The notes under the pieces: generated by a model | What the model saw: only the letters and a program-made list of their open reading frames with translations | The model's database searches: none | What the model was told of the DNA's origin: nothing | Origin: an uncultured Actinomycetes bacterium | GTDB taxonomy: Bacteria; Actinomycetota; Thermoleophilia; UBA2241 | Assembly (NCBI GenBank): GCA_963783865.1 | Contig: CAWAPD010000003.1 | Location: 485,009-549,008, forward strand | Reading direction: 5' to 3' | Length of the DNA: 64,000 nt | Translations under genes and position numbers: made by a program | Shown here: positions 317-62,046 of the stretch, piece by piece | How positions within the stretch are numbered: position 1 is the first letter of the stretch | Layout: every line of letters begins with the position of its first letter

Positions 317-403
317 TGGTGGGCGAGGCGGGATTTGAACCCGCAAGCTCTTGCGAGCACTAGGTCCTGAACCTAGCGTGTCTGCCAGTTTCACCACTCG
401 CCC
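317..403 (-). tRNA. tRNA-Leu (anticodon CAG), 87 nt with long variable arm, CCA encoded
   Basis: Manual fold: acceptor GGGCGAG/CTCGCCC, anticodon stem CTAGG/CCTAG with loop TTCAGGA (CAG), variable-arm hairpin GCTC-GCAA-GAGC, T-arm GCGGG-TTCAAAT-CCCGC, discriminator A + CCA. Confidence 0.85.
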
Positions 404-476
404 GAGCGGCCGTTCCGCAGGGTGTGACTATACCACAGCGAATAGTCTGCCAAAGCCGACCGACCGGACGGAGAAC

Positions 477-2189: not shown

Positions 2190-2253
2190 TGTTGGTGAGT
2201 CCCCGGCCGGCGGAGATCGCGGCGGCGGCCGTCTGAGCGACACGGAAGCGGCG

Positions 2254-3093: not shown

Positions 3094-3629
3094 ACGTCGT
3101 CCTGTTCGCCCTGAAGATCGGGTTCCTGGTCCTGCTGGTCCTGTTCGTCGTGCTCGTGATCCGGCGGACGGTGACCGACGTGCGCGCGGGGGCCAAGCCC
3201 TCTGAGCAAGCGCCCGACGTGGCGATCCCCGAGGCGGCCGTCGTGCCGGCGGCCACGCCGGCCGAGCGCCGCCAGCGCCGCCAGCGCCGCCACGCCGAGC
3301 GCACGATGCCCGGCGAGTCGCTCGACCTGATGGCCCACATCGACCCGCGCCTGGTCGTGGTCTCCAGCCCGGTGCTCGAGGAGGGCGAGGTCGTCAAGCT
3401 CGACGGCTGGGTGATGTTCGGGCGGGCGCCGGCCTCGGACGTGGTCCTCGACGACCCCTTCGTGTCGCAGACCCACGCGCGGGTGACGCCCCGCGGGCAG
3501 CTCCACTTCGTCGAGGACCTGGGCAGCACGAACGGCACCTTCCTGAACGGGCGCGAGGTGCTCGAGGCGCAGCTCCTGATCGACAGCGAGCTGCGCATCG
3601 GCGAGACGGTCTTCCGGTACGAGGAGTGA
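3087..3629 (+). CDS. fhaB: FHA-domain membrane protein (FhaB/FipA-like)
   Basis: ATG overlapping fhaA stop (ATGCTAG); N-terminal TM helix, C-terminal FHA (GRAPASDVVLDDPFVSQTHARV...STNGTFLNGREV). Confidence 0.8.
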   Translation: MLDVVLFALKIGFLVLLVLFVVLVIRRTVTDVRAGAKPSEQAPDVAIPEAAVVPAATPAERRQRRQRRHAERTMPGESLDLMAHIDPRLVVVSSPVLEEGEVVKLDGWVMFGRAPASDVVLDDPFVSQTHARVTPRGQLHFVEDLGSTNGTFLNGREVLEAQLLIDSELRIGETVFRYEE

Positions 3630-3636
3630 CGCGCGC

Positions 3637-7681: not shown

Positions 7682-7722
7682 ACGGGCCGATGCGTATGGT
7701 ACGTTTATGGACGTGAGGTGTC

Positions 7723-9600
7723 ATGACTGACGGATTCGACCGCGGCGAACTGATCGACGGGCGCTACCGGGTGCTCAACCGCCTGGGTATCGGCGGCATG
7801 GCCGACGTTTACCTGTGCGAGGACCTCACCCTCGGTCGGCGCGTCGCGCTCAAGGTCCTGCTCTCGCGCTACGCTGGCGACGGGCAGTTCGTCGAGCGGT
7901 TCCGCCGCGAAGCTCAGGCGGCGGCCCAGATCAACCACCCCAACATCGTCAACGTCTACGACTGGGGCATGGTCGGCGAGACGTACTACATCGCCATGGA
8001 GTACGTCGAGGGTGAGACGCTGAAGGAGCGGATCCGCCGGCAGGGCAAGCTGGCCCCCGGCGAGGCCGTACGGATCACCCTCGAGCTGTTGGCCGCGCTC
8101 GACGTGGCCCACGCGGCCGGCATCGTCCACCGCGACGTCAAGTCGCAGAACATCCTGATGGACGCCGCCGGCACGGCCAAGGTGACCGACTTCGGCATCG
8201 CCCGTGCCGGCGACTCGCAGATGACCGAGGCCGGGTCGATCCTGGGCACCGCCCAGTACCTGGCGCCCGAGCAGGCCAAGGGCGAGCCGGTCGACGCGCG
8301 CTCCGACCTGTACTCGGTCGGCGTCGTGCTCTACGAGATGCTGACCGGTCGCGTGCCGTTTCAGGGGGACAGCGCCGTCACCGTGGCGCTCAAGCACGTG
8401 AACGACGTGCCGCCCGAGCCGGCCGAACTGGTGCCGGGGCTGCCCTACTCGCTGAACCAGATCGTCCTGAAGGCGCTGGCCAAGGACCCCGAGCGCCGCT
8501 ATGACAGCGCGTCGAGCTTCGCCGCCGACCTGAACAACGCGCGCACGGGCGGGCCGTTGATCGCGGCCGCCTACGACCCCTCCGAAGAGGCCACGCAGGT
8601 GCAGAAGGCGGCGCCGCTCGCCGCCGAGGGGCAGACGCGGGTGATGCCGAGGGCGGCGCCGCCTTCTCCGCCCGAACGCGGGCGCCGCCGCCCGGTCTGG
8701 CCCTGGCTGCTGCTCGTGGCCTTCGTGGTCGTCGCCGCGATCGTCGCGGCGCTGCTCCTCAAGTCGTGCGCGTCGAGCGCGGTGAAGGTGCCGTCGGTCG
8801 TCGGCCAGAGCGAGGCCGCGGCGCGGACGGCGCTCGAGAACGACGGCTTCAAGGTCAAAGCCGTCGACACGTACTCCGACCAGTTCTCCGGCGGGTTCGT
8901 CGCCGCGCAGGACCCGGCGGGGGGGTCGAGCCTCGCCAAGGACGGCACCGTGACGATCTCGGTCAGCCGTGGGCCCGTGCACACGCAGCTGTCCGACCTG
9001 AGCGGCATGACGCCCGCCCAGGTCCAGGACTACCTCAAGCAGTTCGGGCTCGTCGGCAAGCAGCTGTCGGGGTCGTCGAACGCGGTCCCCAAGGGACACG
9101 TGTACAAGCAGAACCCGCCGGCCGGCACCACGGTTGCGCGCGGCGACACCGTGAAGTACTGGGTCAGCGCCGGCAAGCCGCAGGTCGCGGTGCCCGACGT
9201 GAGCGGCGAGACGCAGAGCCAGGCGACGGCCGACATCCAGGCAGCCGGCCTGCAGATCGGCTCCATCAGCCAGGCGCCGAGCGGCTCGGTGCCCGCCGGC
9301 AGCGTGATCAGCCAGAGCCCGCCGGCAGGACAGCTGGTCGACCAGGGCACCCCGGTGTCCATCACGGTCAGCAGCGGCACCCCGACGCCGAGCCCGAGCC
9401 CGTCGATGGTCGCGATCCCCGACGTCCTCGGGCTCCCCGAGGCCGAGGCCGAGACGAAGCTCACCGACGCGGGGTTCATCGTCGACCCGCCCAAGCAGGT
9501 GGGCAGCATCCAGCCGCCCGGCACGGTGGTGAAGGTCACGCCCGACGTCGGCACGCTGGCGCCGACGGGCTCGTCGGTCACGATCTGGGTAGCGAAGTAG
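7723..9600 (+). CDS. pknB: Ser/Thr protein kinase PknB with four extracellular PASTA domains
   Basis: Kinase motifs ([27 protein letters not shown]), single TM helix, four about 65-aa PASTA repeats; ATG after GAGGTG. Confidence 0.95.
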
Positions 9601-32507: not shown

Positions 32508-33172
32508 CGTACCCGTCCGAAGAGCCGCCGCAGCCCGCCGCCTCGCGGCGGCTCCGGCGGCGGCACCGGCCGCACCAGGCCGTTCCTGAGGGCGGTCACC
32601 ACGTCGGCCGTGCCGGTGACCGCCCGCGGGATCTCGGTGACGCACGTGAGTAGTCGGTCGACGGTGTGCGCGTCGCTGCCGCCGGTCTGGGGCTTGTCGA
32701 GCGCCATGGCCAGCTCCTCGGCGGTCCGCACGTAACGATTGCCGGTCCAGTTCCCGTTCCAGACCTCGACCGCGTCGATGCGGTCGCCCACCTGGTCGGC
32801 CAGCCCCGAGTAGTAGCTGGAGCCGCTGCGGCCGCCGCCGGCGGCGGGGTGGACCCAGACCATCGCCGCCGTATCGGGGATCTCCTCGGCCCGGGGCAGG
32901 CCCTGCACGTCCTGGAACGTCGCCAGGTAGTCGAGGTCGGGCGAGAAGAGGATGAAATCGCCGTACAGGGTCGAGATCTCCACGCCGTGCACCAGCACGA
33001 CGCCCTGCTCCGCCATCGGCCCTTCCAGAGCCAGATTGTCGGTCACGTCGCCATGGTTGGTCAGGGCGATCGCCTGCACGCCGTTCAGGCGGCAGAACGT
33101 GAGGAGGTCGCCGTAGGCGATCTGCGAGCAGTCCGAGGCCGGACAGGTGTGCACGTGGAGGTCGACGAGCAT
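32504..33172 (-). CDS. PHP-domain metal-dependent phosphoesterase (TrpH/YciV-like)
   Basis: MLVDLHVHTCPASDCS...ALTNHGDV...HGVEIS...VHPAAGG PHP motifs; ATG 33172. Confidence 0.75.
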   Translation of the reverse strand: MLVDLHVHTCPASDCSQIAYGDLLTFCRLNGVQAIALTNHGDVTDNLALEGPMAEQGVVLVHGVEISTLYGDFILFSPDLDYLATFQDVQGLPRAEEIPDTAAMVWVHPAAGGGRSGSSYYSGLADQVGDRIDAVEVWNGNWTGNRYVRTAEELAMALDKPQTGGSDAHTVDRLLTCVTEIPRAVTGTADVVTALRNGLVRPVPPPEPPRGGGLRRLFGRVR

Positions 33173-34940
33173 GATGGCCGAGTATACACTTGGCCCGGTC
33201 ATGCAGGGGACGCTGGACACCTTCAGCGTCGTCGAGGTCCTCCAGATGCTGGGGCGGGTCCGGAGCTCGGGGACGCTCCACATCGAGTGCGCCGAGCGGC
33301 AGATCGACGTCCACTTCATCCAGGGACTTATCGCGGAGACCCGCGATTCCACCCGGGTGTACGCCGACACCGTGCTCGGCAGCCTCCTCATCAAGCGCGC
33401 CCTGGTCACCGACGACCAGCTCGCCGAGGCGCTCGCCGAGCAGGAGCACAACCCCAAGCCGATCGGCACCATCCTGGTCGAGAAGGGGTTCGTGCACGAG
33501 GCCGACCTGCGCGACGTGTTGTCGCGGCAGGTCGCCAACTCGTTCCTCGCGGTCAAGACCGCCGGAGCCGGCACGTTCATGTTCGTCATCGACGAGCAGC
33601 CGCGACCCGTCGACTACATCACGATCGACACCAACAGCGTCCTCATCGAGGTCTCGTCGGTCGGCGGCGACTACGTCGTCGCCTTCAACCTGCTCGGGCA
33701 GGCGAACACCGTGCTGCTGCTCAACCGGGACTACGAGACGCTGCCCCGCCATTCGATCCCGATGGGCCGCGACGAGTTCCATGTGCTCACGCTGATCGAC
33801 GACCGGCGCACGGTGCAGGAGATCACCGACCTGAGTCACCTCGAGGAGGTGACGGTGATCAGCATCCTCGGCAAGTTCTGCGAGGCCGGGGTGCTGCTCG
33901 CGAAGGCCGAGAAGCAGGCGCGGGCGGCCGCCGACGACGAGCTGCTCGCACACCGGGACAGCGTCTGGGCCGAGGTCACGAAGATCCTCGACGACGTGAC
34001 CGGCACGGAGACGACCCTGGCCGCGCAGCCGCCGCGCAAGCAGGTCGAGCAGCCGGCCGACGCCGGCGTCGCCCTCAAGGTGGGCGACATGATCGACGGG
34101 CTCGTCGACACCGAGGTCACGCCGGCGCTCCAGGCGCTCGAGCACGACGGCGCGGCGGCGCCGTTCGACGAGGCGACGGCTGGGCCCGGGCAGACGCCGG
34201 CCGACGAGGTCGATCCGCTGGCGGCGCTGGTCGCCGCGTTCCCCGGACCGCCACCCGACGAGGCCGAGCTCGAAGACGCCGCCGGGCCGGAGCCCGGACA
34301 GGCCGCGCCTGCGGCCGCGGCGGAGACCCCCTCTGAGACACCGCCCGCGCCCCCTGTGCCTCCGGCCGTGGACGGGACCGCCGGGTTCGACTTCTCGGGC
34401 GCGACAGCGCCTGCGCCCGAGTCTCCCGCCGCGCCCGCGCCCGAGCCTCCCGCCGCGTCCGCGCCCGAGCCTCCCGCCGCGTCCGCGCCCGAGCCTCCCG
34501 CCGCGTCCGCGCCCGAGTCTCCCGCCGCGTCCGCGCCCGAGCCTCCCGCCGCGCCCGCGCCCGAGTCTCCCGCCGCGCCCGCGCCGCCCGCGGTGGGCGT
34601 CAACGGTGAGATGCCGATGCTTGCCGAACCGGTCCACCAGAGCTGGGAGGCCATCGACGGCGATGACGGCGAGCGTGACGAGCTGACCGAAGAAGAGATC
34701 GCCGCGGGCTTCTCGCGCGACATCACGCGCCCGCCGCTCGGGACCGGCATGGACCTGCCATGGGACGACGAAGAGGAGCCGGCGGCGCCGACTGCGCCCA
34801 GGGCACGCCCAGGCGCGCCCGCCACCGGCGAAAAGCCGGCGGCTCCTGCCGGCGCCGATCCCGGGTCGCCGGCTCCCGAAGGCGCCGACAAGCCGCTGCC
34901 GCCTCTCACGCCCGACGAGCTCGACGGCAAGTGGACCTGA
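33171..34940 (+). CDS. DUF4388 + T2SSE_N (GspE/MshE N-terminal-like) domain protein with Pro/Ala-rich repetitive C-terminus
   Basis: FSVVEVLQMLGRVRSSGTLHIE (DUF4388), LGSLLIKRALVTDDQLAEALAEQEHNPKPIGTILVEKGFVHEADL (T2SSE_N-like), then low-complexity PEPPAASA repeats; start ATG 33171/33174 or 33201. Confidence 0.6.
   Translation: MMAEYTLGPVMQGTLDTFSVVEVLQMLGRVRSSGTLHIECAERQIDVHFIQGLIAETRDSTRVYADTVLGSLLIKRALVTDDQLAEALAEQEHNPKPIGTILVEKGFVHEADLRDVLSRQVANSFLAVKTAGAGTFMFVIDEQPRPVDYITIDTNSVLIEVSSVGGDYVVAFNLLGQANTVLLLNRDYETLPRHSIPMGRDEFHVLTLIDDRRTVQEITDLSHLEEVTVISILGKFCEAGVLLAKAEKQARAAADDELLAHRDSVWAEVTKILDDVTGTETTLAAQPPRKQVEQPADAGVALKVGDMIDGLVDTEVTPALQALEHDGAAAPFDEATAGPGQTPADEVDPLAALVAAFPGPPPDEAELEDAAGPEPGQAAPAAAAETPSETPPAPPVPPAVDGTAGFDFSGATAPAPESPAAPAPEPPAASAPEPPAASAPEPPAASAPESPAASAPEPPAAPAPESPAAPAPPAVGVNGEMPMLAEPVHQSWEAIDGDDGERDELTEEEIAAGFSRDITRPPLGTGMDLPWDDEEEPAAPTAPRARPGAPATGEKPAAPAGADPGSPAPEGADKPLPPLTPDELDGKWT
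34414..34581 (+). repeat. seven tandem copies of a 24-bp coding repeat (GCGCCCGAGYCTCCCGCCGCGYCC, peptide PEPPAASA/PESPAAPA)
   Basis: Read directly in sequence; in-frame within the DUF4388 protein C-terminus. Confidence 0.85.
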
Positions 34941-35040: not shown

Positions 35041-36429
35041 TCAGGCGGTCACGTCGCGGACGAGGTCCTCGTAGGCTGATACGTAGAGGTCGATGTCCTC
35101 GTCGGTGTGCGTGATCGACAGCGTCCACTCCTCTTCGCGGCCGGGAGCGATGATGATGCCGCGGTTGATGTTGTACAGCCATGCGAGTCCGACGAGCTCG
35201 TGGTCCTGGTACTTGATGAAGGACTCGTAGTCGGTGACCTTGGTGCTGGCGAAGTTGACGCACCCCTTGGAGCGGATGCCGACCGTGTACGCCGGGAAGT
35301 TGTACTTCTCCGCGATGGCGTCGCACTCGGTGATCAGGCGGTCGTTGAGGTAGTCGAGGCGAGCGTAGGCGGCTGGGGTCATGACCTGCTCGAAGCTGGC
35401 CCGCGCCGCGGCCATCGACAGCGGGTTGCCGCTGTAGGTGCCGACCTGGAAGACGGTGCCCTTGTGCACGATGTCCATGATCTCGTCGCTGCCGCCGATC
35501 GCCCCGCACGGGGTGCCGCCGGCGATGGCCTTGCCGAGGGTGACCATGTCGGGCACGACGCCCCAGCGCTCGATCGCGCCGCCGGCGGCGGTGCAGATGC
35601 CGGTCTTGACCTCGTCGAAGATGAGCACGATGCCGTGCTTCTTGGTGATCTCGCGGACGGCCTCGAGGTAGCCCGGCTCGGGCAGCACGACGCCGAGGTT
35701 CATCATCGCCGGCTCCATGATCAGGCAGGCCGGCTTGCGGCCCTCGGCGATGAGCTTCTCGATGCGCGCCTCCATCATCGCCGGGTCGTTGAACGGGACC
35801 GGGATGGTCATGTCGATCGACGACTGGGGGATGCCGGCGCCGTACGACATCGACTTGTAGTTGTCGCGCGGCCCGATCTGGCCGAAGTCCGTCACGCCGA
35901 TCGAGACCATGACGTAGTCGTGATGGCCGTGGTACGAGCCGAAGATCTTCATGATCGTCTCACGGCCGGTGAAGCCGCGCGCGACGCGGATGGCGTCCAT
36001 CGTCGCCTCGGAGCCGGAGTTCACGAAACGCCACTTCGGCAGCTTGAAGGTCTCGGCGAGGTGCTCGGCCATGATGACGCCGTCCTCGGTGGGCAGGCCG
36101 AACTGCGTGCCGAGGGGAGCCCGCTTCTGGATCGCTTCGACGATGACGGGGTGGGCGTGGCCCTGGACCATGCAGCCGAAGCCGTTGTGGAAGTCGCTCA
36201 ACTCCTGGCCGTCGACCGAGTAGATCTTGGATCCCTTGCCGTGGGTGAAATAGACGGGATACGGATCGCGCGCGTGGTACGTGGAGGCGACGCCCATCGG
36301 CATCGACTTGACCGCGCGCTTGTACAGCTCATAGGACTTGGGAGTGGCCTGCTCGAGGCGCTTCTCCTCCTTGTCCGTCAGCTCCGTGATGCGCTTGCGG
36401 TCGATCTGGACGGGGGTACTCGACGTCAT
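35041..36429 (-). CDS. class-III PLP-dependent aminotransferase (glutamate-1-semialdehyde 2,1-aminomutase family)
   Basis: SGSEA, FDEVKTG (PLP-lysine region), TLGKAIAGG motifs; ATG 36429 12 nt after AAGGAG. Confidence 0.85.
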   Translation of the reverse strand: MTSSTPVQIDRKRITELTDKEEKRLEQATPKSYELYKRAVKSMPMGVASTYHARDPYPVYFTHGKGSKIYSVDGQELSDFHNGFGCMVQGHAHPVIVEAIQKRAPLGTQFGLPTEDGVIMAEHLAETFKLPKWRFVNSGSEATMDAIRVARGFTGRETIMKIFGSYHGHHDYVMVSIGVTDFGQIGPRDNYKSMSYGAGIPQSSIDMTIPVPFNDPAMMEARIEKLIAEGRKPACLIMEPAMMNLGVVLPEPGYLEAVREITKKHGIVLIFDEVKTGICTAAGGAIERWGVVPDMVTLGKAIAGGTPCGAIGGSDEIMDIVHKGTVFQVGTYSGNPLSMAAARASFEQVMTPAAYARLDYLNDRLITECDAIAEKYNFPAYTVGIRSKGCVNFASTKVTDYESFIKYQDHELVGLAWLYNINRGIIIAPGREEEWTLSITHTDEDIDLYVSAYEDLVRDVTA

Positions 36430-36785
36430 TCTTCATTCACTCCTTACGCACAGGGACATCAGAAAGGACTGACAGGAGTTCGGGCGATTACCACCTCGCT
36501 GTTCATGCTCGACCCGAGCGTCCGGGAAGCGATGCCCCGGAGCCCTTTCCGCCCCCTGACCCGAGAGCGTCACAGACCGGAACGGCTGCGTCGACAGTCT
36601 ATCGCAGAACGGTGCAGCATGTCGCAAACGGCAGCAAGCTTGCCCAATCGGCAGCCGATTCGGAAGCACACCTTCGCCGCCGATACCCGGCCCGACGGCG
36701 TTCCGTGCGGCCGTCGAACACCCGTGCCCGGCCTGCCGCCGGGCACTCATCCTATCGGGCCCTGCCGCCACCGGCAAAGAGAAAC

Positions 36786-36864
36786 GGGGCGGCTGCCTGT
36801 CGGCAGCCGCCCCGCTGACGAAGAAGGGCGGGGCCCTCACGGGCCCCGCCCTTCGATCCCCTTG
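36786..36864 (-). terminator. two tandem GC hairpins (36833-36864 and 36786-36813) after the cytochrome gene, second followed on the minus strand by GUUUCUCUUU
   Basis: GAAGGGCGGGGCCC-TCAC-GGGCCCCGCCCTTC and GGGGCGGCTGCC-TGTC-GGCAGCCGCCCC. Confidence 0.6.
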
Positions 36865-36893
36865 TCGAGCCCGGAGGCTCGGGCAGAGGCGTG

Positions 36894-38912
36894 CTACTTG
36901 CCGGTCACCTTGACGGTCTTGCTGTACCCCACCGGACGCGTGACGCCCGAGAAGGTGTACGGACCGAACTTGGCGCGCAGCGTGGTTGCGCCCTTCGGGA
37001 CCTTCCACTTGTAGGTGTATGTCCCGTCGGTGCTCGGAGCGACGGCCGCCGTGACGACGACGCTCGCGACGGTCTTCCAGCTGCTGCCCGACTTCTTCTG
37101 GATGGTCACCTTCTTGCCGGCGCTCTGGTCAGAGCTCGACACGGTACCGCTGAGGGTGATCTTGGTACCGGTCTTGACGCTCGTCTTGGAGGCCTTGATG
37201 GTGACGGTGAACGGGATGGGCGCTACCTGAGCGACCCACGCGTTGGCCGCGTCGATCGCCTTCTCCGTGTAGGCCCAGTTGTGGATGCCCCGGCTCGAGT
37301 CCTCGGTGACGAATTCCTCGATGGTCTCGGCCTTCAGGAAGGCCAGGACGTTCGGGTTCGTCGAGGTCGGGTCGGACGGTTCTCCGATGTCGGCCGAGGC
37401 GTCCTCGGCGTCGGTGTACCCGATGCCGATTGCCGCGGTATCGAGCTTGGCGTCCAAGGCGGCCACCTGCTGATCGAACAGCGACTGGCGGGCGTCGAGG
37501 ACCGGCTGGAGGTACAGCGCCAGGTCATCGGTCTTCGTGGCGTGGCACTGGCCGCAGGCCGAGTTCGGCATGGGGCCGGTCCGGCCGGACACGGTCATCG
37601 TGTGCGTCGCCGCGTATTCCGGCGTGATGACCTTGAAGAGGTGGTTGGCGCCCGTTCCCGGAACGCCGTCGAACTCGATCCCGGTCGGGACCATATGGCA
37701 CTGGACGCAGTCGCCCTTGTGGACCGACGGCGTGTCAGGCACACCGAGGTCGGTGAGGGACGTGCCGGCCATCATCTCCTGCTGCGGATGATGGATCTCC
37801 TCGCCGGCGACGACCTGACCGCTCTGGTCCTCCGGGACCTCGGTGTTGTGGCACTGCGTGCAGAGCGTCGCTTGCGGCCGCACGAGTTGCGGGTTGCGGC
37901 CCGAGTTGAACACGGACTGCTGATCGCCCGCGGCGTGCGGGTCGTGGCAGGTGACGCACGCGTCGCCGTACAGCAGGCTGGTCGGGTCAGGCGAAGGAAC
38001 GCCGTTCGCGACCTGGATCTGATAGTCGGCGGAGTGGCACGGCAGGCATTCCGTGTTGGTGCCGTTGCCGATCGCCTTGAGGGTATCGAGGGCGTTCATG
38101 TGCGTGACCGCCGGGAATCCAGTCCCCGTGAAGCGGTCCTGCATCATCTCTTCGTACTGGACTGCGCTCTCGCCGTGCGCTCTCGCGCTGGCGGTGATCG
38201 GAGCGGCCCAGAAGAGGTTCCCGATCGGGTTGTCCGGCATCGGGATGTTCAGCACGTCGCTCAGAGGAGCGGCCGGCTGATACGCGCCGCTCGGGCTCGC
38301 CAGCGGCGTGGGGAACGGGTCGTACACCACGGGGTACTGCGGCTGGATCGTCGTAGGCGACGCCGCGGGTTGCGGCGTGTAGGTGTACGTTGCAACGGTC
38401 TTGCCGTAGCGCGCGTGGCACTGGCCGCAGATGTCAGGATTGGCCAGCGAGCCGTACTTGAACCCGGCGTCGTGCATCCGGGCGCCGTTGTAGTGGCAGT
38501 CGGCGCAGCCGACGTACGGCTCCGAGTAGGCCGCCGTCGAGTCGGGTGCCGGTGTGCCGGTCGGATAGACCGTGGGCGTCGCGGTCGGGCCGGGCTCCAA
38601 GGCGCCCTGCGCCTTGCTCGGATCGTAGTTGCCACTGTGGCAGCCGGCGCAGCCGGGGCCTTCGGAGATGGGCAGGGCGTTCGTCGTGAACGCGCTGACG
38701 TCGCCCAGCATCGAGTGGGCCGACGTCAACCACGCCGGGACCACCGTTGGGCCGATGCCGCCGGTGTCGTGACAGTTGGCGCAGTTCTCGAAAGTAGCGC
38801 CATAGACGGTGGTGTAGTCCGATCGCGCGCCGTTGCTGTCGGCGAACGCGGCTGGTGCCGCGATCAGCAACGCGACAGCAAGAACGAGCGCGAGAACGAG
38901 AACATGCTTCAC
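36894..38912 (-). CDS. secreted multihaem c-type cytochrome (nine CxxCH motifs) with C-terminal Ig-like beta-sandwich domain
   Basis: Signal peptide VKHVLVLALVLAVALLIAAPAAFA; CANCH, CAGCH, CADCH, CGQCH, CLPCH, CVTCH, CTQCH, CVQCH, CGQCH; GTG start 5 nt after GGAAGGAGG; visibly lower GC and T-ending codons relative to flanks. Confidence 0.85.
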   Translation of the reverse strand: MKHVLVLALVLAVALLIAAPAAFADSNGARSDYTTVYGATFENCANCHDTGGIGPTVVPAWLTSAHSMLGDVSAFTTNALPISEGPGCAGCHSGNYDPSKAQGALEPGPTATPTVYPTGTPAPDSTAAYSEPYVGCADCHYNGARMHDAGFKYGSLANPDICGQCHARYGKTVATYTYTPQPAASPTTIQPQYPVVYDPFPTPLASPSGAYQPAAPLSDVLNIPMPDNPIGNLFWAAPITASARAHGESAVQYEEMMQDRFTGTGFPAVTHMNALDTLKAIGNGTNTECLPCHSADYQIQVANGVPSPDPTSLLYGDACVTCHDPHAAGDQQSVFNSGRNPQLVRPQATLCTQCHNTEVPEDQSGQVVAGEEIHHPQQEMMAGTSLTDLGVPDTPSVHKGDCVQCHMVPTGIEFDGVPGTGANHLFKVITPEYAATHTMTVSGRTGPMPNSACGQCHATKTDDLALYLQPVLDARQSLFDQQVAALDAKLDTAAIGIGYTDAEDASADIGEPSDPTSTNPNVLAFLKAETIEEFVTEDSSRGIHNWAYTEKAIDAANAWVAQVAPIPFTVTIKASKTSVKTGTKITLSGTVSSSDQSAGKKVTIQKKSGSSWKTVASVVVTAAVAPSTDGTYTYKWKVPKGATTLRAKFGPYTFSGVTRPVGYSKTVKVTGK

Positions 38913-39358
38913 GGGCACCTCCTTCCTGGAGTGTGGAGTGGGTCTGTAGGAATCCGCCTTCAAAGATCACACCTCCTTTCTACGCAAGCGGAAGTGGTCT
39001 GTGGGGGTATTCCGGCCGCACGCGGGGCGTGAGGGGCCGGGAGAGGGATCGACGGTCCGAGAGGAAAGGGGAGGCGAAACGGGCGCCGTGGGCGAGGCAG
39101 GTGTCCTCGACCGCAGCGGTCGGCCTGTCGGCTGCACCCAAGATAGTCGACCCCATTGGCATGGTCCCCTCGTGCGCTCCCCTGGTGTGCCCGTTCTATT
39201 GCGAAGGTCGCCCCTGGGTCAACGTTCGGCTGCCCTTGGGAAACGCGGCACAAGGGGCATCGCGGCGATGCTCCACGCACCAAACCATGCAATAGTTGAT
39301 TCTTATAGCCGAAACGCAGTTTGGCCGCAACCTTTTTGGGTCACGGAGCGGGCTCGGG

Positions 39359-40609
39359 TCAGCCGGTCGCGTCCGGTGTCGGAGCCGCGGGGGGGTCGGC
39401 TGCTGGGGCGTCGGGGGTGGGGGCGTCGGGGACGGAGACGTCCCCGACGCCCCCACCGCGACGCCCCTCTTCGGTGGCCGGCCGCTGCAGGCCCAGGTCC
39501 CAGCCCTCGAACCTCACCCGTGGACGCAGGAAGAGGTACGTCTCACGCACCAGCGGGATCAGCGGCACGGCGATGAACATGCCCGAGATGCCGTGGATCT
39601 CCTGTCCGGCGAGGATGACGAAGATCACGACCAGCGGGTGCACCCGCAGCCGCGATCCCATGATCGTCGGCGTGAGGACGTGTCCCTCGATCTGCTGGAT
39701 CGCCAGGTACGTGAGGATCACCCACACCATCGTGAGCGGCGAGTGGAGCAGGGCGACGAACGACGGCGGCACGGCCGCCAGGAACGGCCCGACGTAGGGG
39801 ATGATCTCCATGACGGCGGTCCACGCTCCGAAGAAGGCCGCATACTTGCTGCCTGAGGGGAACACACCGGTCATGCCGAGGATCCACATCGCGAGTCCGG
39901 CGCTGAGCCCGAGCGCGGCCGACAACAGGAGCTGCGCCTTGACGTAGTCGACGACGGCCGACTGTGCGAGGCGGACGTAGCTCTCGCCGTCGCTGCGCGA
40001 CCGCGTCGGGAAGTGGTCGACGACGAAGCGCGAGATACGGCGCGAGTCGAGCAGCATGTAGATGGAGATCACGACGATCACGATCAGCAGGGCGACGGTG
40101 CGCACCACCGAGACCCCGAAGCCGAGCAGGCTGCCGGAGATGCTGGGCACGCGGTCGGCGGCCGACCGCGCGAAGCGCTGCAGCTGGGCCCCGACGTCGA
40201 CGTTCAGATGGAGCCGGTCGGCGACGTGCTGGAGTTGGTCCACGAGGCTCTTCGCCTGGCTGGTCATCGAGGGCAGCGAGGAGAGCAGGTTCTTGAGCTG
40301 GGTCACGATCGCGGGCATGAGCGCTGCCGCGAGCCCGACGATCACGGCGACGGCCACGAGATAGACGAGGAACACGCCCACGTAGCGCGGTACGTGGGCG
40401 CGCTTGAGCAGGTTCACGAGCGGGTTGAGGACGAGCGCCAGCAGCGAGGCCGCCAGGAAGATGAACACCGCCTGGCCGATGACCCCGAGGAACAGCCAGA
40501 CGATGATCAGCAGAGCCGGGATGAGCGCCGCTTGTAACCAGCGCGGCACGACGACGCGGCCCATGGGGGGAGCCTCGTGGTCCGTTGACCTGCCGTCGGC
40601 GGCTGCCAT
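39359..40609 (-). CDS. AI-2E family transporter (PerM/TqsA-like, UPF0118)
   Basis: 8-TM architecture with conserved PYVGPFLAAVP and IAVPLIPLV segments; ATG 40609 sits 7 nt downstream of a GGTATACT -10-like element (possible leaderless start); alternative ATG 40564. Confidence 0.75.
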   Translation of the reverse strand: MAAADGRSTDHEAPPMGRVVVPRWLQAALIPALLIIVWLFLGVIGQAVFIFLAASLLALVLNPLVNLLKRAHVPRYVGVFLVYLVAVAVIVGLAAALMPAIVTQLKNLLSSLPSMTSQAKSLVDQLQHVADRLHLNVDVGAQLQRFARSAADRVPSISGSLLGFGVSVVRTVALLIVIVVISIYMLLDSRRISRFVVDHFPTRSRSDGESYVRLAQSAVVDYVKAQLLLSAALGLSAGLAMWILGMTGVFPSGSKYAAFFGAWTAVMEIIPYVGPFLAAVPPSFVALLHSPLTMVWVILTYLAIQQIEGHVLTPTIMGSRLRVHPLVVIFVILAGQEIHGISGMFIAVPLIPLVRETYLFLRPRVRFEGWDLGLQRPATEEGRRGGGVGDVSVPDAPTPDAPAADPPAAPTPDATG

Positions 40610-56718: not shown

Positions 56719-56923
56719 CGCCGCGGAGCGGGCGCTCGCCGCGCGAACTTGTGCGTTCTTGGGCACCTCCGTGACACGCCCGCCCGGCGGCGATACGCTC
56801 GCCGTCGGCGGCCGCCGTGGCCGCCGTGACTCCGTTGCCGGTGCCGCCGGACCCGCGGCAGGTCCGGGGGTGTGATCCCCGCACCGGCGGGCGGTCGTGA
56901 ACGCGGATCACGTGGAGGTGTGC

Positions 56924-58324
56924 GTGGAGTCGAAGATCCGTACCCGTATGGGCGACGGCGCCCTCGTCGAGACGACCCCGTCCGAGATCAGAGCCGATCT
57001 CGAGGCAGGCACTCAGCAGGCCGCCAAGCGCTCGAAGTACCCCGAGCTCACCAGCGACGAGCTCGACCACCTGCTCGACATCTTCGCGTCGAACAGCCGG
57101 GTGACCGGCGTCGACATCGGCGACGAGGTCGTCCTCAGCTACGACGGCTGCGGCAGCCAGGACATGGGGACCCGTATCAACGACCTCCAGGTCTACGAGC
57201 AGATCCTCTGCGCCGACTCGCTCGAGATGTACAGCCACGACTACTCGTACAAGCCGTGCAAGCCCCTCGTGCCTTACGAGCAGGCGATCATGCGCCAGGC
57301 GCAGTGGCTGCTGACGGCGCCCTGCGGCTACGGGGCGATGAGCGACCTCGGGCGCTACACCGTGCCCGACGGCCCGGTCGTCAACTGGTCGCAGCTGCTG
57401 CCGCTGGGCCAGATCGACGAGGCTCGGGCGGCCCAGGAAGAGGCCGTCGAGCTCGCCGCCGACGACATGGTGTTCGTGGCCGAGGGCATGGTCGAGGCCG
57501 GCGTCGACCACATCGACTTCGACACGGCCGGAGCGGCCGGCGACGCCGACTTCCTGGCCACGCTCAAGGCGATCGAGCGGCTGCGCGCCGCCTATCCCGA
57601 CTTGGGCATCCAGATCGGCATGGCCGGCGAGTTCGTGCTCGGCATGCACGGCGAGCTCGAGTACGACGGCAGGCGCCTGGCCGGCATGTGGCCGGTGCAG
57701 CAGATGGAGGCGGCGGCCAAGGCCGGCGTCACCATCTTCGGGCCGGCCGTCAACACCAACACCGGCAAGTCGATCGCCTGGAACGTGGCCCGCGTGCTGA
57801 CCATCTGCAAGCCGGTCTGCGAGCAGTCCACCGTGCCGGTGCACGTGAACGGCGGGATGGGCGTGGGCGGCGTGCCGATGCACATCACGCCGCCCGGCGA
57901 CGCGACGACCAGAGCCTCGCGGGCCTGCGTCGACATCCTGCGCCTCGACGGGTTGTAGGTGGGCGCCGGTGACGTCTACGGCCAGGCGACGGCGCACAGT
58001 GTCGCCTCGAGCATGGGCGGTATCCGCACTGCGGGAGATCTCGTAGCCAGGATGCAGTTCACCCGGGGCATGAGGAACATCGAGGCCAAGCGGTACGTGG
58101 CCGAGAAGCTGGGCGTGTCGGCGCTCGACCTGGTCGACCCGGTCGTGATGCTCGACGTGCGCAAGGAGTTCGGCCTGGGGTCGATGTACGAGTCCGAGAT
58201 CTCGGGACCCGACGACCCGCTCGCCATCGAGGCCAAGTTCAACATCTCGAAGGTGCTCGACGTCCCCATCAACTGCGTCGAGCGTTTCAAGGAGAAGAGC
58301 GGCCGGGCGGCGGCCCGGGCGTAG
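56924..58324 (+). CDS. mtbB: dimethylamine:corrinoid methyltransferase MtbB homolog (Dimeth_Pyl family), copy 1, with in-frame TAG (putative pyrrolysine codon) at 57956-57958
   Basis: Conserved MtbB blocks on both sides of the TAG: TRMGDG, YGAMSDLGRYTVPDGP, DFDTAGAAGD, GMAGEFVLGMHGELEYDG, FGPAVNTNTGKSIAWNVARV, GMGVGGVPM, then DGL-TAG-VGAGD...[19 protein letters not shown]...EAKRYVAEKLGV; the ORF track splits it into 56897..57958 and 57959..58324; GGAGG RBS before GTG 56924. Confidence 0.75.
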
Positions 58325-58351: not shown

Positions 58352-58392
58352 GGGGCGGCGGCGTGGCGGATGCCACGCCGCCGCCCCTTTCG
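58352..58392 (+). terminator. rho-independent terminator after mtbB copy 1 (also terminates convergent PHP gene)
   Basis: GGGGCGGCGGCGTGGC-GGAT-GCCACGCCGCCGCCCC followed by TTTCG. Confidence 0.7.
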
Positions 58393-58447
58393 CGTCTCGG
58401 CGCCGCGGCCGGGCGCGGCAGGCCGGCCGAGTCGGCCGGCCAAGGAG

Positions 58448-59251
58448 CTACGGCAGCGGCACCGGCGTCCGGTCCGACAGCCTGAGAGTCTCGGTGTAGC
58501 CGGCCGCGCGCGCCGCGGCCACGCCCTCCTCGAAGAGCATCCCGATGTCGCCGAGCTCGTGGGCGTCCGAGCCGAACACCAGCGGGATCCCCAGCTCGCG
58601 GGCGCGGGCGAGCTGGCGTGGGGAGGGGTACATCGCGCCGGCGGGGTCGAGCACGCCGCCGGTGTTCAGCTCGAGCGCCATGCCGGCGGCGGCGACGGCG
58701 GCCAGGGCCCGGTCCTCCCACCTGGTCACGTCGGCGGCGGGACGGTGGCCCCACAGGCTCACGTAGTCGAAGTGCGCGAGCACGGCGAAGAGCCCCGACC
58801 GCGCGGCCCGCTCGACCACGGCGTAGTAGTCGCGGTAGACGGCGTCGACGTCGTCCCAGCGCGAGTCACGGCGCTTGTCGTCGTCGCCGGCGAAGTCGAA
58901 GTCGCCGACGAAGTGGACCGAACCGAGCGCATAGTCGAAGGGGTGGGCCGCCAGCGCCTCGGCCAGCCAATCCTCGCGCTCGGGCAGGTAGTCGGCCTCG
59001 ACCCCCAGCAGCACGGTGATCTCGGGATGGCGGTCGGCCGCGTCCTCCACGTCGGCCACGTAGCGCTCGAGGAGGGACGGCGCGACGCCGTACTCGCCGA
59101 CGGTTCCGAGGCCGGGCGGGACGAGGTGGTCGGTGATGCCGATCTCGGCCAGCCCGAGCGCGACGGCGCGCTCGACCACGTCGTCGATCTCACCAGTGCC
59201 GTCGGAGTAGCGGGTGTGCAGGTGGTAGTCGCCGAGCAGGTGGTAGTCCAT
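58448..59251 (-). CDS. PHP-family hydrolase, histidinol-phosphatase (HisK)-like
   Basis: YHLHTRYSDG, ITDH, HF..., SDAH PHP metal-ligand motifs, about 267 aa typical of HisK-type HolPases; ATG 59251. Confidence 0.7.
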   Translation of the reverse strand: MDYHLLGDYHLHTRYSDGTGEIDDVVERAVALGLAEIGITDHLVPPGLGTVGEYGVAPSLLERYVADVEDAADRHPEITVLLGVEADYLPEREDWLAEALAAHPFDYALGSVHFVGDFDFAGDDDKRRDSRWDDVDAVYRDYYAVVERAARSGLFAVLAHFDYVSLWGHRPAADVTRWEDRALAAVAAAGMALELNTGGVLDPAGAMYPSPRQLARARELGIPLVFGSDAHELGDIGMLFEEGVAAARAAGYTETLRLSDRTPVPLP

Positions 59252-59437
59252 GGACCCTCCAGCGGATGGCCGCGGCCGGGGCCGCGGAGCGCCGACCACT
59301 ATGGCCCGGCGCGCCGGCGCGGTCAAGCGCGGCGGCGGGCGGCGGGGCGGCAGGCGCCGCCCGCCGCCCCGCCGTGTTTGGCCGCCGCCCCAGCGGGAAC
59401 CAGCGACGCGACAGTACGACCCTTCCCGAAAGGCATC

Positions 59438-60469
59438 ATGCGCATCGCCGTCTTCTCGACCCACAGCCACGACCGCGAGTTCCTGACCGCGGCCGACGTC
59501 GACCACCACCACGAGCTCGTGTTCTTCGAGCCGCGACTGTCCGCCGGCACGGCTGCCCTGGCCGACGGCTTCCCCGTCGTCTGCGCCTTCGTCAACGACG
59601 AGCTCGACCAGCGCACCCTCGAGATCCTGGCCGCCGGTGGCACCGGGCTCGTCGCTCTGCGCTCGGCGGGGTTCAACAACGTCGATCTCGCCGCGGCCCG
59701 CGACGTGGGGCTGCGCGTCGTCCGGGTGCCCGCCTACTCGCCGCACGCCGTTGCAGAGCACACGATCGCCTTGATCCTGGCGCTCGACCGCAAGATCAAC
59801 CGCGCCTCGACGCGCGTGCACGACGGCAACTTCTCCCTCGACGGCCTGCTGGGGTTCGACCTGGCCGGCCGGACCGCGGGCGTCGTCGGCACCGGCGCCA
59901 TCGGCGCCACGGTCGCGCAGATCCTCAGTGGCTTCGGCATGCGGGTCCTGGCGACCGATCCGGTAGAGAATCCCCGCGTGACGGCGCTCGGCGCCGAGTA
60001 CGTCTCGCTTGGCCCTCTGCTGTCCGCCTCGGACGTCGTCTCGTTGCATCTGCCGCTGACTGCCGAGACCCACCACCTGATCGACGAGCGCACGATCGAG
60101 CAGATGAAGCCGGGGGCGATGCTCATCAACACCAGCCGCGGCGGCCTCATCGATTCGCGCGCGGTCATCCACGGCCTCAAGTCGGGGCGCATCGGCTACC
60201 TGGGCCTCGACGTCTACGAGGAGGAGACCGACCTGTTCTCGTACGACCTGTCGGGCCAGATCATCCAGGACGACGTCTTCAGCCGCCTGATCACCTTCCC
60301 CAACGTGGTCGTCACCGCCCATCAGGGCTTCTTCACGGTCGAGGCTCTGCAGGAGATCGCCCGCGTCACGCTGCGCAACGTCGACGCCTTCGCTGCCGGC
60401 GGGCCGCTGGAGAACGAGGTCCGCCCGCTGCAGCCGGTCCGCGACCGCGACCACCTGCGTGCGGCCTGA
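59438..60469 (+). CDS. ldhA: D-isomer-specific 2-hydroxyacid dehydrogenase, fermentative D-lactate dehydrogenase (LdhA)-like
   Basis: Near-collinear with E. coli LdhA: CAFVNDE, LRSAGFNNVDL, VVRVPAYSPHAVAEH, GVVGTGAIG (NAD fold), LHLPLT, NTSRGGLIDS catalytic triad region; ATG after GAAAGG. Confidence 0.85.
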   Translation: MRIAVFSTHSHDREFLTAADVDHHHELVFFEPRLSAGTAALADGFPVVCAFVNDELDQRTLEILAAGGTGLVALRSAGFNNVDLAAARDVGLRVVRVPAYSPHAVAEHTIALILALDRKINRASTRVHDGNFSLDGLLGFDLAGRTAGVVGTGAIGATVAQILSGFGMRVLATDPVENPRVTALGAEYVSLGPLLSASDVVSLHLPLTAETHHLIDERTIEQMKPGAMLINTSRGGLIDSRAVIHGLKSGRIGYLGLDVYEEETDLFSYDLSGQIIQDDVFSRLITFPNVVVTAHQGFFTVEALQEIARVTLRNVDAFAAGGPLENEVRPLQPVRDRDHLRAA

Positions 60470-60659
60470 CCCGACCCCCCGACCCAGACAGCCCCGATAG
60501 CCCACCGCGCCGGGTGGCGACCCCCCGAGCGGGGGCGATAGGATGGGCCCACGGCCCGGGAGGAGCCCGTTCGCGTCTCGCTCGCAGAAGTGCGTCCCCG
60601 GGCCGCCGGCCGCCCGCCCGGTGCGCGCCGGCCCACCCTGAGCAGTGGAGGTGATGCGC

Positions 60660-62046
60660 TTGGAACCGAAGATCCCTACCCGCATGGGTGACGGGTCGCT
60701 CGTCGAGATGACCCGGTCCGAGATCGAGGCCGATCTCCTGGAGGGCACCCGGCAGGCGGCGAAGCGGGCCAAGTGCGACCCGCTCACGCAGGACGAGCTC
60801 GATCACCTTCTCGACATCTACGCCTCGGCGGCGCGCTTCACGGCGGTCGACATCGGCGACGAGGTCGTGATGAGCAACGACGGCACTGGGACCAAGCACA
60901 TCGGCAACCGGGTGCAGGACCTGCAGACCTACGAGCAGGCGCTCGGCGTCGACATGGTCGAGCTGTGGCAGATCGACTACTCCTACAAGGCGATCAAGCC
61001 CAACATCGCGCACGAGAAGCAGTCGATGAAGATCGCCCAGGCGCTGCTCACCAACCCGGTGCAGTACGGGGCGATGCCCGACCTCGGGCGCTACTCCAAG
61101 CCCGACGGGCCGATCGACAACTGGTCGGAGCTGCTGCCGCTGATGAAGATCGACGAGGCCCGCGTCGCCCAGGTCGAGGCGGCGAAGATGCTCGTCGAAG
61201 ACATCGACTTCGTCGCCGGGCACATGGTCGAGGCGGGCACCGACGGCATCGACTTCGACACGACGGGGGCGGCCGGCGACGCCGACTTCTTCGCCGGGCT
61301 CACCGCCTGCCGACGGCTGCGCGAGAAGTACCCGTGGCTGGGCATCGAGATCGGCATGGCGAGCGAGTTCGTGCTCGGCATGCACGGCGAGCTCGAGTTC
61401 GACGGCGAGCGGCTGGCCGGCATGTGGCCCAAGGACCAGGTGCGGATGGTCCAGCAGGCCGGGGCCTCGATCTACGGGCCGGCCGTCAACATCAACACCG
61501 GCAAGTCGACCGCCTGGAACATCGCCCGGGCGATCACCTTCATCAAGCCCGCGATGGCGGTCGCCGAGATCCCCGTGCACGTGAACGTCGGCATGGGCGT
61601 CGGCGGCGTGCCGACGTGCGTCTACCCGCCGGCCGACGCGACCTCGCGGGCCAGCAAGGCCTTCGTCGAGATCCTGAAGATCGACGGCTACTAGGTGGGG
61701 ACGGGCGACCCCCTCGGCATGGAGTCGGCGCACACGCAGGCTTCGGGCATGGGCGGAATGCGGACCGCGGGAGATCTCGTGGCTCGCATGCAGATGACCC
61801 GGAGGATGCGCCTCAAGGAGGCCAAGCAGTACGTGGCCGGCAAGCTGGGCTGCGGCGTGCGCGACCTGTCCGACCCGACGGCGATGGAGCAGATCAGGCT
61901 CGAGAAGGGCCTCGGCACGCTGCCGTTCACCTCGTCGGTGCACCCAGGCCGAGGCCGGCATGATGGAGGCCAAGTTCAACATCGCCAAGATGCTCGGCGT
62001 CGAGATCAACTGCGTCGAGCGCTTCAAGGAGCGCGCCGGGCTGTAG
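60660..62046 (+). pseudogene. mtbB: MtbB homolog copy 2: in-frame TAG at 61692-61694 at the same alignment position as copy 1, plus an apparent +1 frameshift near 61945-61960 (possible pseudogene or sequencing error)
   Basis: [39 protein letters not shown] conserved around TAG; C-terminal MMEAKFNIAKMLGVEINCVERFKERAGL is recovered only in the +1 frame from about 61960; the in-frame reading continues spuriously to 62804. Confidence 0.55.

Follow-up and report, generated by a model that had tools for sequence, protein, structure and literature searches.

A predicted OcwA-like nonahaem cytochrome c with an Ig-like C-terminus, vertically inherited at a fixed chromosomal site in uncultured Thermoleophilia

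The window, by which we mean the whole 64,000-nucleotide (64-kb) stretch of DNA analysed here, carries a gene for a predicted nonahaem c-type cytochrome of the OcwA/NrfA superfamily, in which an OcwA-like core and helical bundle are followed by an Ig-like C-terminus. The gene has been inherited vertically, in one fixed chromosomal position, within an uncultured lineage of soil and sediment Thermoleophilia (Actinomycetota). Its most likely role, and the best explanation overall, is that of an extracytoplasmic terminal oxidoreductase for extracellular electron transfer (EET), an assignment made from homology only and to which we give a probability of about 0.6. OcwA and OmhA, the characterised proteins closest to the window cytochrome, serve monoderm bacteria as extracellular electron-transfer reductases, in agreement with the electron-transfer role proposed in a sequence-only reading of the same DNA. 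The features of the locus are listed in Table 1.

Table 1. Features of the cytochrome locus, in window coordinates.
Feature	Coordinates	Strand	Details
Cytochrome gene	36894..38912	minus	GTG start, 672 aa, TAG stop; from ORF list and sequence
Sec-type signal peptide	38841..38912	minus	residues 1-24, ending ...AAPAAFA before DS; read from translation
Nine-haem domain	37518..38840	minus	residues 25-465; CxxCH at 44, 88, 136, 162, 289, 319, 351, 402, 453
C-terminal helical bundle, NrfA/OcwA type	37230..37517	minus	residues 466-561; DSSP helices 466-496, 520-537, 546-561
C-terminal Ig-like beta-sandwich domain	36897..37196	minus	residues ~573-672; no counterpart in OcwA
Terminator region, three stacked hairpins after stop	36783..36889	minus	RNA fold MFE -91.9 kcal/mol, z -7.3
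SD2, GGAAGGAGG	38918..38926	minus	serves GTG 38912; GGAGG core 5 nt from GTG
SD1, AGAAAGGAGGTG	38970..38981	minus	upstream Shine-Dalgarno; serves TTG 38963
N-terminal extension, 17 codons, in frame	38913..38963	minus	from alternative TTG start 38963
Family-specific 5' leader element	38891..39034	minus	hairpin, UCCGC/GCGGA stem, spacer, SD2, start 2

The large secreted protein with nine CxxCH motifs described in the sequence-only reading is borne out by the in-frame motifs, whose Cys codons lie at 38783, 38651, 38507, 38429, 38048, 37958, 37862, 37709 and 37556, and by the signal peptide. A six-frame scan of the 64 kb returned 15 CxxCH matches, nine of them from the cytochrome, and the only other in-frame occurrence among the called genes is in the zinc finger of DnaJ. 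All nine motifs are kept across 39 family members, except that haem 2 is gapped in one row and the His of the haem-5 motif is replaced by Met in three. The signal peptide, read directly from the sequence as MKHVLVLALVLAVALLIAAPAAFA followed by DS, has a positive n-region, a hydrophobic h-region and an A-x-A cleavage site, a pattern common to the 39 members, and its translation contains no lipobox Cys. From this conserved N-terminus the cytochrome is predicted to be a Sec-dependent secreted protein.

The fold of the cytochrome was modelled with AF2 (pLDDT 79, pTM 0.77). An NrfA-like globular haem domain is followed by a C-terminal three-helix bundle, as in OcwA, and the bundle region aligns to that of OcwA, including an invariant G-x-H-N motif (H544/N545). 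The Ig-like domain reported in the sequence-only reading at the C-terminus of this nonahaem protein is likewise supported. Residues invariant in the family include H66, H246, H271, H326, H398, H424, H544 and M407. These seven non-motif His residues and Met407 are on offer as distal ligands, which suggests eight six-coordinate haems. In OcwA-type cytochromes, haem 9 has His/Met ligation and the other closed haems are bis-His ligated. Because the model is haem-free and poor at residues 233-249, the ligand assignments stay candidates.

The kinship to OcwA is evident at the level of single sequences and of profiles. A phmmer search of the PDB retrieved OcwA (TherJR_2595, the nonahaem outer-cell-wall cytochrome of Thermincola potens JR; PDB 6i5b) with an E-value of 1.5e-22 and OmhA (the undecahaem S-layer cytochrome of Carboxydothermus ferrireducens; PDB 6qvm) with an E-value of 3e-13 and 26% identity. 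When the family profile was aligned to OcwA with hhalign, the probability was 100% and the E-value 6e-47 at 34% identity (~33-34% over the aligned regions), with haems 2-9 matching one-to-one and in register; this alignment begins only at haem 2, and haem 1 is N-terminal in both proteins. The two hosts belong to different phyla, Bacillota for OcwA and Actinomycetota for the window cytochrome, and OcwA ranked only about 60th among the matches in a library of 1.84 billion proteins.

Close comparison with OcwA revealed that the His-His pair at one of its two open haem sites is retained. The HH380/381 pocket over haem 5 of OcwA corresponds to H374/H375 here, and 33 of 39 family members keep this pair, whereas the HH281/282 pair at haem 2 is missing, with Glu/Gly and Gly/Ser at the aligned positions; the invariant H246 lies a few residues upstream of the lost pair. 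Also missing is the beta-sheet domain of OcwA (residues 75-156), which MccA shares and which sits between haems 1 and 2; motifs 1 and 2 are separated by 44 residues here compared with 110 in OcwA. Conversely, the insert between haems 4 and 5 is longer than in OcwA, and the Ig-like domain of ~100 residues is added. OmhA differs in having eleven haems, other N-terminal modules and no Ig-like C-terminus, and the octahaem/pentahaem nitrite reductases ONR, TvNiR and NrfA, like MccA, have different haem counts and much weaker similarity to the window cytochrome. The likeness to the decahaem cytochromes MtrC, OmcA and UndA is one of proposed role as surface terminal reductases, together with a marginal match to Pfam PF22113 at residues 34-144 (35.7 bits against a cut-off of 30); their staggered cross of ten haems with two beta-barrel domains was not found in the window cytochrome.

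Under the preferred reading, the apoprotein would be exported by Sec, its signal peptide cut after AFA, and the nine haems added extracytoplasmically by the same cytochrome c maturation system that serves the actinobacterial bcc complex. The haems would then form a branched wire, eight of them six-coordinate and haem 5 open beneath the conserved His-His pair. Respiratory electrons from upstream carriers could pass through the cytochrome to extracellular or cell-wall-space acceptors, for which Fe(III) minerals, humics or flavins are candidates, possibly with small oxyanions at haem 5, and the Ig-like domain may serve retention or contact. No LPXTG, SLH or lipobox anchor was found in the cytochrome, so surface retention is a conjecture. 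No further multihaem cytochrome, quinol dehydrogenase or ccs/res gene was found within the 64 kb or the conserved flanks.

OcwA reduces iron oxide, electrodes, FMN, nitrite and hydroxylamine (PMC6703420), and we weighed two other functions for the window cytochrome. It could be mainly an enzyme of the cell-wall space for soluble substrates, acting on nitrite, hydroxylamine or a sulfur oxyanion or in detoxification, rather than a terminal reductase of EET. We regard this as unlikely: the nearest relatives by sequence and structure are two iron-reducing surface cytochromes and not nitrite or sulfite reductases, the second open site of OcwA, at haem 2, is lost, and the CxxCK catalytic haem with its Lys proximal ligand, a trait of NrfA and octahaem nitrite reductases, is absent. 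An NCBIfam scan of the cytochrome returned no NrfA or octahaem nitrite reductase model, while the DmsE-type decahaem, GSU2203 decahaem and HmcA models scored far below their cut-offs, and no nrfH-like partner gene was found near the cytochrome. Less probable again is electron flow in the reverse direction, with uptake from Fe(II), reduced humics, minerals or a partner organism. Multihaem wires are reversible, nothing in the sequence fixes the direction, and electron uptake was suggested for a biocathode actinobacterium that contains OcwA (PMC7943316); however, OcwA and OmhA are tied to the reduction of Fe(III) and electrodes (PMC6703420, PMC7829351), and markers of oxidative EET were not seen in the 64-kb window.

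The cytochrome gene has 55 strong homologues, and about 50 loci in metagenome-assembled genomes (MAGs) of uncultured Thermoleophilia/Actinomycetota carry one. Conserved flanking genes were recorded in 42 of these loci, where the cytochrome keeps to one slot, flanked on one side by the dnaK-hsp20-grpE-dnaJ-hspR-clpB heat-shock cluster, joined in the window and 23 related loci by a gene for an AI-2E-family permease, and on the other by a HemL-like aminotransferase gene. The downstream aminotransferase was considered as HemL, a link to haem synthesis, but scored below both NCBIfam HemL cut-offs (360 against 398 and 358 against 527), and we therefore claim no functional link to the cytochrome. Cytochrome distances co-vary with those of the flanks (Mantel r 0.60, p<=0.001). 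A comparison with a 95%-identical relative gave equal synonymous divergence for the cytochrome (58 of 673 codons) and a neighbouring gene (34 of 463); with 32 nonsynonymous codon differences beside its 58 synonymous ones, the cytochrome gene is under purifying selection. The shared slot, the co-variation, the equal synonymous divergence and a composition that is not alien together support vertical inheritance.

The sequence-only reading had instead taken the gene for a horizontal acquisition, with a GC content visibly below the flanks and more T-ending codons. The codon observation stands: at 6.7%, T-ending codons reach a share that none of the other 39 genes matches (mean 3.3%, z +2.6), and GC3 is 0.896 against 0.941, the second lowest (z -2.3). 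These offsets, and window-type copies at non-syntenic sites in other genomes, are what a recently acquired foreign gene has in its favour; a few extra non-syntenic copies were found (L001, L030 and L069), and the window-type ones in L001 and L069 hint at some movement within the class or at old duplication. The GC difference, in contrast, was not recovered. The gene has a GC of 0.669 (rank 7 of 40, z -1.2), equal to or above that of the adjoining aminotransferase (0.652), dnaK (0.668) and hsp20 (0.663), the whole stretch from 35 to 43 kb lies at 0.66-0.68, and the Karlin codon distance is unexceptional (B = 0.187, rank 21 of 40). Moreover, the GC3/T3 offset recurs in 40 of 42 syntenic homologous loci, so that the slightly lower GC3 is a trait of the gene family and no sign of transfer. 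At the borders of the cytochrome there is no transposase or integrase gene and no tRNA, the neighbours being chaperones, the permease and the aminotransferase; the nearest tRNAs lie at 22.6 and 56.5 kb, and a test for plasmid origin gave no plasmid match. The matches from beyond Thermoleophilia/Actinomycetota were all weak and partial. The sequence-only reading had pointed to composition and to close relatives as the places to look, and both came out against transfer; given also the slot kept in 42 genomes, recent foreign origin is highly improbable.

Upstream of the gene we found a structured leader with two possible starts. The strong ribosome-binding site noted from the sequence is present at the GTG (SD2 in Table 1), and AAGGAGGTG at this position is conserved in the family. 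A second start, TTG 38963, lies further upstream and is preceded by its own perfect Shine-Dalgarno sequence, whose GGAGGTG is invariant across 37 loci, which leaves the 5' end of the gene at 38912 uncertain. In all 37 loci the upstream start is in frame, 15-19 codons away, and the spacer contains no stops in 288 codons in this frame compared with nine in 504 codons of the other two frames; its GC3 is only 0.57, unlike coding sequence in the window. SD1 and the first start are enclosed by an invariant stem, UCCGC (38988-38992) pairing with GCGGA (38953-38957). A covariance model of the leader (R1) scored 54 bits in the window (E 1e-12) and, across 1.24 Mb of loci, matched only ahead of members of this cytochrome family; in 25 leaders, 91% of cells were paired compared with 35-48% in slid controls. 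Rfam gave nothing credible in the window leader, the window terminator or the leader of one related locus (L040). A conserved upstream ATGGGGA was rejected as the true cytochrome start, its frame relative to the gene being distributed 3/14/13 across loci; it may be a short uORF. No promoter was picked up in the window by a scan for the sigma-70 consensus; in the main cluster, alignment alone brings out a conserved TTGCTA-17-TG-TATACC promoter clearly. At the other end, the hairpin terminator attributed to the gene was confirmed: GC-rich hairpins are stacked behind the stop codon, and the final one (36816-36783; 15 pairs in a terminator scan) has a U-rich tail.

Multihaem cytochromes of this kind had been called atypical for Actinobacteria, which holds for cultured Actinomycetes but neither for this uncultured Thermoleophilia clade nor for OPB41 Coriobacteriia, where cytochromes of this type have been described. 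OcwA homologues or 'outer surface MHCs' were listed for OPB41/Anaerosomatales Coriobacteriia and for Thermoleophilia MAGs from boreal lakes, lineages of anoxic habitats for which Fe(III) reduction or EET was inferred (PMC9686372; bioRxiv 10.1101/2022.03.26.485925). Those reports are gene lists from annotation pipelines, and neither describes the slot, the Ig-like fusion, the altered haem-2 site or the conserved leader. Danish soils and metagenomes from peat, permafrost and lake sediment have yielded the lineage studied here, and in such habitats Actinobacteria are usually scored as lacking EET.

A broader picture, which we put forward tentatively and consider possible although somewhat doubtful, is that of an order-level group of uncultured soil, peat and sediment Thermoleophilia with the OcwA-derived, Ig-fused nonahaem cytochrome as a core vertical gene, an overlooked electroactive group in which expression of the cytochrome is governed by a new dual-start 5' leader. 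If true, the lineage would represent widespread electroactive Actinobacteria that have gone unnoticed, and the leader with its two conserved in-frame starts would be a cis-regulatory or dual-initiation device of a new kind, confined to this cytochrome. If the protein functions like OcwA, Fe(III) or humic respiration (or electron uptake) would extend to a common uncultured actinobacterial lineage. The subfamily also offers a natural experiment on the OcwA scaffold, which has here lost one of two open haem sites and the dimer-contact beta domain and gained an Ig-like module, and the conserved leader with its frame-locked starts poses a concrete and testable regulatory puzzle.

A six-frame search of the 64 kb finds 15 CxxCH motifs, nine of them in the translation of the minus-strand cytochrome gene; among the called genes of the window, the remaining in-frame motifs are all in the DnaJ zinc finger. 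The N-terminus (MKHVLVLALVLAVALLIAAPAAFA, followed by DS) reads in translation as a plain Sec-type signal peptide that lacks a lipobox, and no covalent anchor motif is present in the protein. The sequence-only observation of a secreted nine-haem cytochrome was largely right, and the protein is real. Pfam returned Cytochrome_C7, Paired_CXXCH_1, and Cytochrom_c3_2 together with a marginal MtrC/MtrF domain match, and a sub-threshold match to Big_3_5 covers residues 573–650.

A sequence search of the PDB placed OcwA, the nonahaem outer-cell-wall cytochrome of Thermincola potens JR (6i5b), first with an E value of 1.5e-22, followed by OmhA, the undecahaem cytochrome of Carboxydothermus ferrireducens (6qvm; 3e-13), and by octahaem nitrite reductases at approximately 1e-4. 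A profile of 39 family members matched OcwA with a probability of 100% (E 6e-47, 34% identity), and the aligned region begins at the haem-2 CAGCH and extends to include the helical bundle, keeping haems 2–9 in register. OcwA, a terminal reductase with nine haems that is exposed at the cell surface, acts on iron oxides, electrodes, and flavins as well as on nitrite and hydroxylamine; its haems 2 and 5 are five-coordinate with a His-His pair over each, and haem 9 is His/Met coordinated (PMC6703420). The pair over haem 5 is kept as H374/H375 in 33 of the 39 family members, whereas the pair over haem 2 is replaced by Glu/Gly-Gly/Ser. The β-sheet domain that OcwA carries between haems 1 and 2 is missing, with 44 residues between the motifs compared with 110 in OcwA, and the family has an additional Ig-like domain. 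Because of these two losses and the gain of the Ig-like domain, we assign the protein, by sequence comparison, to a distinct subfamily of OcwA-type nonahaem cytochromes. Assignments to the MtrC or NrfA type were rejected, the latter because the cytochrome contains no CxxCK. The non-motif residues His66, His246, His271, His326, His398, His424, and His544, as well as Met407, are invariant among the 39 members. With nine haems and eight candidates for distal ligands, the protein may have a single open haem; the structure model contains no haems.

Horizontal acquisition had been proposed in the sequence-only reading from a GC content visibly below the flanks and more T-ending codon usage. Compared with the 39 other called genes in the window, the cytochrome has a GC content of 0.669 (rank 7 of 40, z −1.2); its neighbours are no higher (aminotransferase 0.652, dnaK 0.668, hsp20 0.663) and the whole 35–43 kb stretch lies at 0.66–0.68, so the claimed drop in GC was wrong. 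The codon observation was correct but the effect is small: T-ending codons account for 6.7% versus 3.3% (z +2.6, the top of the 40 genes) and GC3 is 0.896 versus 0.941 (z −2.3), with a Karlin codon-usage distance to the other genes of 0.187 (rank 21 of 40), far from "alien" values. Homologues in other genomes show this offset too: in 40 of 42 loci, GC3 is lower and T3 higher than in the conserved flanking genes (mean −0.051 and +0.041, compared with −0.045 and +0.034 in the window). The shift is therefore a trait of the gene family and not a sign of recent arrival.

A search of 5.8 billion proteins found 55 strong homologues, every one metagenomic, and the family is small, since an exhaustive phmmer search of 1.84 billion representatives yielded only 37 clusters at E ≤ 1e-30. 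Scanning one genome per GTDB species gave approximately 50 good loci, nearly all labelled uncultured Thermoleophilia or Actinomycetota MAGs (the taxon names are labels carried by the sequence records), with only weak partial matches outside these groups and no cultured genus among the homologues. These MAGs were recovered from soils in Denmark, palsa, permafrost, and the water and sediment of lakes. For the Thermoleophilia order UBA2241, only anoxic lake and permafrost MAGs are known (PMC7438021). One compared locus, L004, belongs to the order's namesake, MAG UBA2241.

Synteny was scored by thresholds on tblastn matches of the window proteins to the homologous loci, covering up to 10 kb per side of each homologue. 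Gene order is kept in 42 loci as clpB-hspR-dnaJ-grpE-hsp20-dnaK, the cytochrome, a HemL-like class III aminotransferase, a DUF4388/c-di-GMP-motif protein, and a PHP-domain protein, and an AI-2E permease lies directly upstream of the cytochrome in the window and 23 related loci. The flank proteins are 78–92% identical to those of the window but the cytochromes just 30–44%, except for the syntenic copies of loci L002 (64%) and L068 (95%). Across 27 genomes, pairwise distances of the cytochrome and the flanks are correlated (Mantel r 0.60, p ≤ 0.001), and this co-variation exceeds that between the two flank genes. Compared with L068, 58 of the 673 cytochrome codons differ synonymously and 32 nonsynonymously, against 34 and 14 of 463 codons in the neighbour gene; synonymous divergence is equal in the two genes, and both are under purifying selection. 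No transposase gene, integrase gene, or tRNA lies at the cytochrome borders in the window, and the region has no plasmid match. By the refutation criteria set in the sequence-only reading, the distribution, synteny, co-divergence with the flanks, and borders, alongside the composition, leave horizontal acquisition unsupported, and the cytochrome is a lineage-typical, vertically inherited gene.

Window-type copies (65–66% identical) also occur at unrelated sites in other genomes, namely L001 and L069. The L001 copy (contig CAWCSR010000002) shares 65% identity with the window protein, whereas the copy in the same genome (L011) at the fixed slot between the dnaK heat-shock cluster and the aminotransferase is 34% identical; the L069 copy adjoins a GAF histidine kinase/LuxR-type regulator pair. 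Another locus (L030) has an extra copy at a non-syntenic site, and three loci carry tandem duplicates in the slot, each copy with its own leader element. The non-syntenic window-type copies and tandem duplicates thus indicate that duplication or intra-class movement has occurred.

Several other genes of the window are worth describing. The aminotransferase directly downstream of the cytochrome, 77–85% identical in nearly all of the 42 loci and always neighboured there by the cytochrome, is closest to glutamate-1-semialdehyde aminomutase (HemL) and scores under both NCBIfam cut-offs; it may be linked to haem synthesis. The DUF4388 gene encodes an MshE-like c-di-GMP-binding motif and a Pro/Ala-rich tandem repeat (APEPPAAS...), where local GC reaches 0.78 and long spurious ORFs appear on both strands. 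A kinase-FhaA-PknB-like cluster, as typically found in core chromosomes of Actinobacteria, agrees with the Actinomycetota assignment. Two MtbB (dimethylamine methyltransferase, Pfam Dimeth_Pyl) genes are each interrupted in frame by a TAG where the profile has pyrrolysine, and because homology resumes past the stop, they suggest that this actinobacterial genome uses pyrrolysine; the window showed neither a tRNA-Pyl nor pyl genes.

Features of the window and of related loci (L numbers are homologous loci from other genomes)
Feature	Coordinates	Strand	Remarks
Cytochrome ORF	stop TAG at 36894	minus	single long ORF; start TTG 38963 in the ORF list (689 aa), GTG 38912 in the sequence-only reading (672 aa)
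SD1 AGAAAGGAGGTG with TTG 38963, SD2 GGAAGGAGG with GTG 38912	38912-38981	minus	perfect SDs; starts 17 codons apart
SD2 GGAAGGAGG	38918-38926	minus	GGAGG core 5 nt from GTG
Promoter and structured leader	window 38891-39360; L040 9690-10000; ~35 other loci	minus (window)	5' of cytochrome; conserved
Three stacked GC-rich hairpins	3' of cytochrome stop	minus	MFE -91.9 kcal/mol, z -7.3 vs shuffles; last hairpin (36816-36783) has a U-rich tail and was picked by the terminator scan
HemL-like class III aminotransferase	35041-36429	minus
DUF4388 protein	33147-34940	plus	repeat especially 34000-34940
Kinase cluster	351-9600	plus	Ser/Thr kinase, FhaA, PP2C phosphatase, RodA/FtsW, PASTA kinase (PknB-like)
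MtbB gene	56897-58324	plus	in-frame TAG 57956-57958
MtbB gene	60645-~62030	plus	in-frame TAG 61692-61694
Overlapping long ORFs	58370-60787	opposite strands	putative genes; 2-hydroxyacid dehydrogenase domains on one, PHP domain on the other
Tandem cytochrome duplicates	L009 3030-7000; L017 8670-12320; L026 9800-12940

The cytochrome is preceded by an unusual 5' region. All 37 of 37 loci have two SD/start-codon pairs, in frame and 15–19 codons apart, and both SDs are complementary to the 16S rRNA 3' end over 9–12 nt in nearly every locus. The spacer between the starts is divisible by three in length at every locus, and its frame holds no stop in 288 codons versus nine in 504 codons of the other two frames; as an internal control, a conserved ATGGGGA farther upstream has no frame lock (3/14/13). 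The spacer GC3 is only 0.57, a non-coding-like composition. A rare AGA codon after start 1, the upstream one, is nearly invariant, and this start is enclosed by an invariant UCCGC...GCGGA stem. A promoter conserved in the main cluster lies 220–290 nt upstream of start 1; it consists of TTGCTA, a 17-nt spacer whose last bases are TG, and TATACC. The leader, 220–290 nt long, contains a covarying 5' hairpin, a terminator-like hairpin with a U-rich stretch after it, and the UCCGC/GCGGA stem. Over 25 leaders, the fraction of paired cells is 91%, compared with 35–48% in slid controls, and 13 pairs are changed on both sides. The leader version of the window is divergent, and its match to the covariance model of the 3' part scores 54 bits. 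Across loci totalling 1.24 Mb, the model matched solely before cytochrome-family members, including non-syntenic and tandem copies, a specificity that is partly by construction because the model takes in the start of the coding region. The leader has no Rfam match.

The analysis demonstrates the sequence features, fold, homology, and evolutionary pattern of the cytochrome. Its function is inferred by homology only. The protein would be exported by Sec and cleaved after AFA, its haems would be attached by the actinobacterial cytochrome c maturation system, and it would reside in the wall space or at the surface. Such a system in Actinobacteria is established from the bcc complex; the 64-kb window contains no ccs/res gene. 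The protein would hand respiratory electrons to acceptors outside the cell; haem 5 may accommodate small substrates, and the Ig-like domain may serve in retention or contact. No partner cytochrome or quinol dehydrogenase is encoded in the 64 kb or the conserved flanks, and the protein may instead reduce soluble substrates or take up electrons.

Multihaem cytochromes in such Actinobacteria are already known, since proteins of the extracellular electron transfer type, including "outer surface MHCs", were reported in 8 of 19 Thermoleophilia MAGs in a lake-MAG survey (bioRxiv 10.1101/2022.03.26.485925) and OPB41 Coriobacteriia isolates have an OcwA homologue among 17–18 multihaem cytochromes (PMC9686372). 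The papers examined on modular multihaem cytochrome evolution do not mention Actinobacteria/Actinomycetota, Thermoleophilia, or Ig-like/immunoglobulin. The subfamily, its fixed slot, the altered haem-2 site with the Ig-like fusion, and the leader appear to be undescribed in the literature examined. The cytochrome would be of greater interest if its role in extracellular electron transfer in this widespread uncultured lineage, or the regulatory leader, were shown experimentally.
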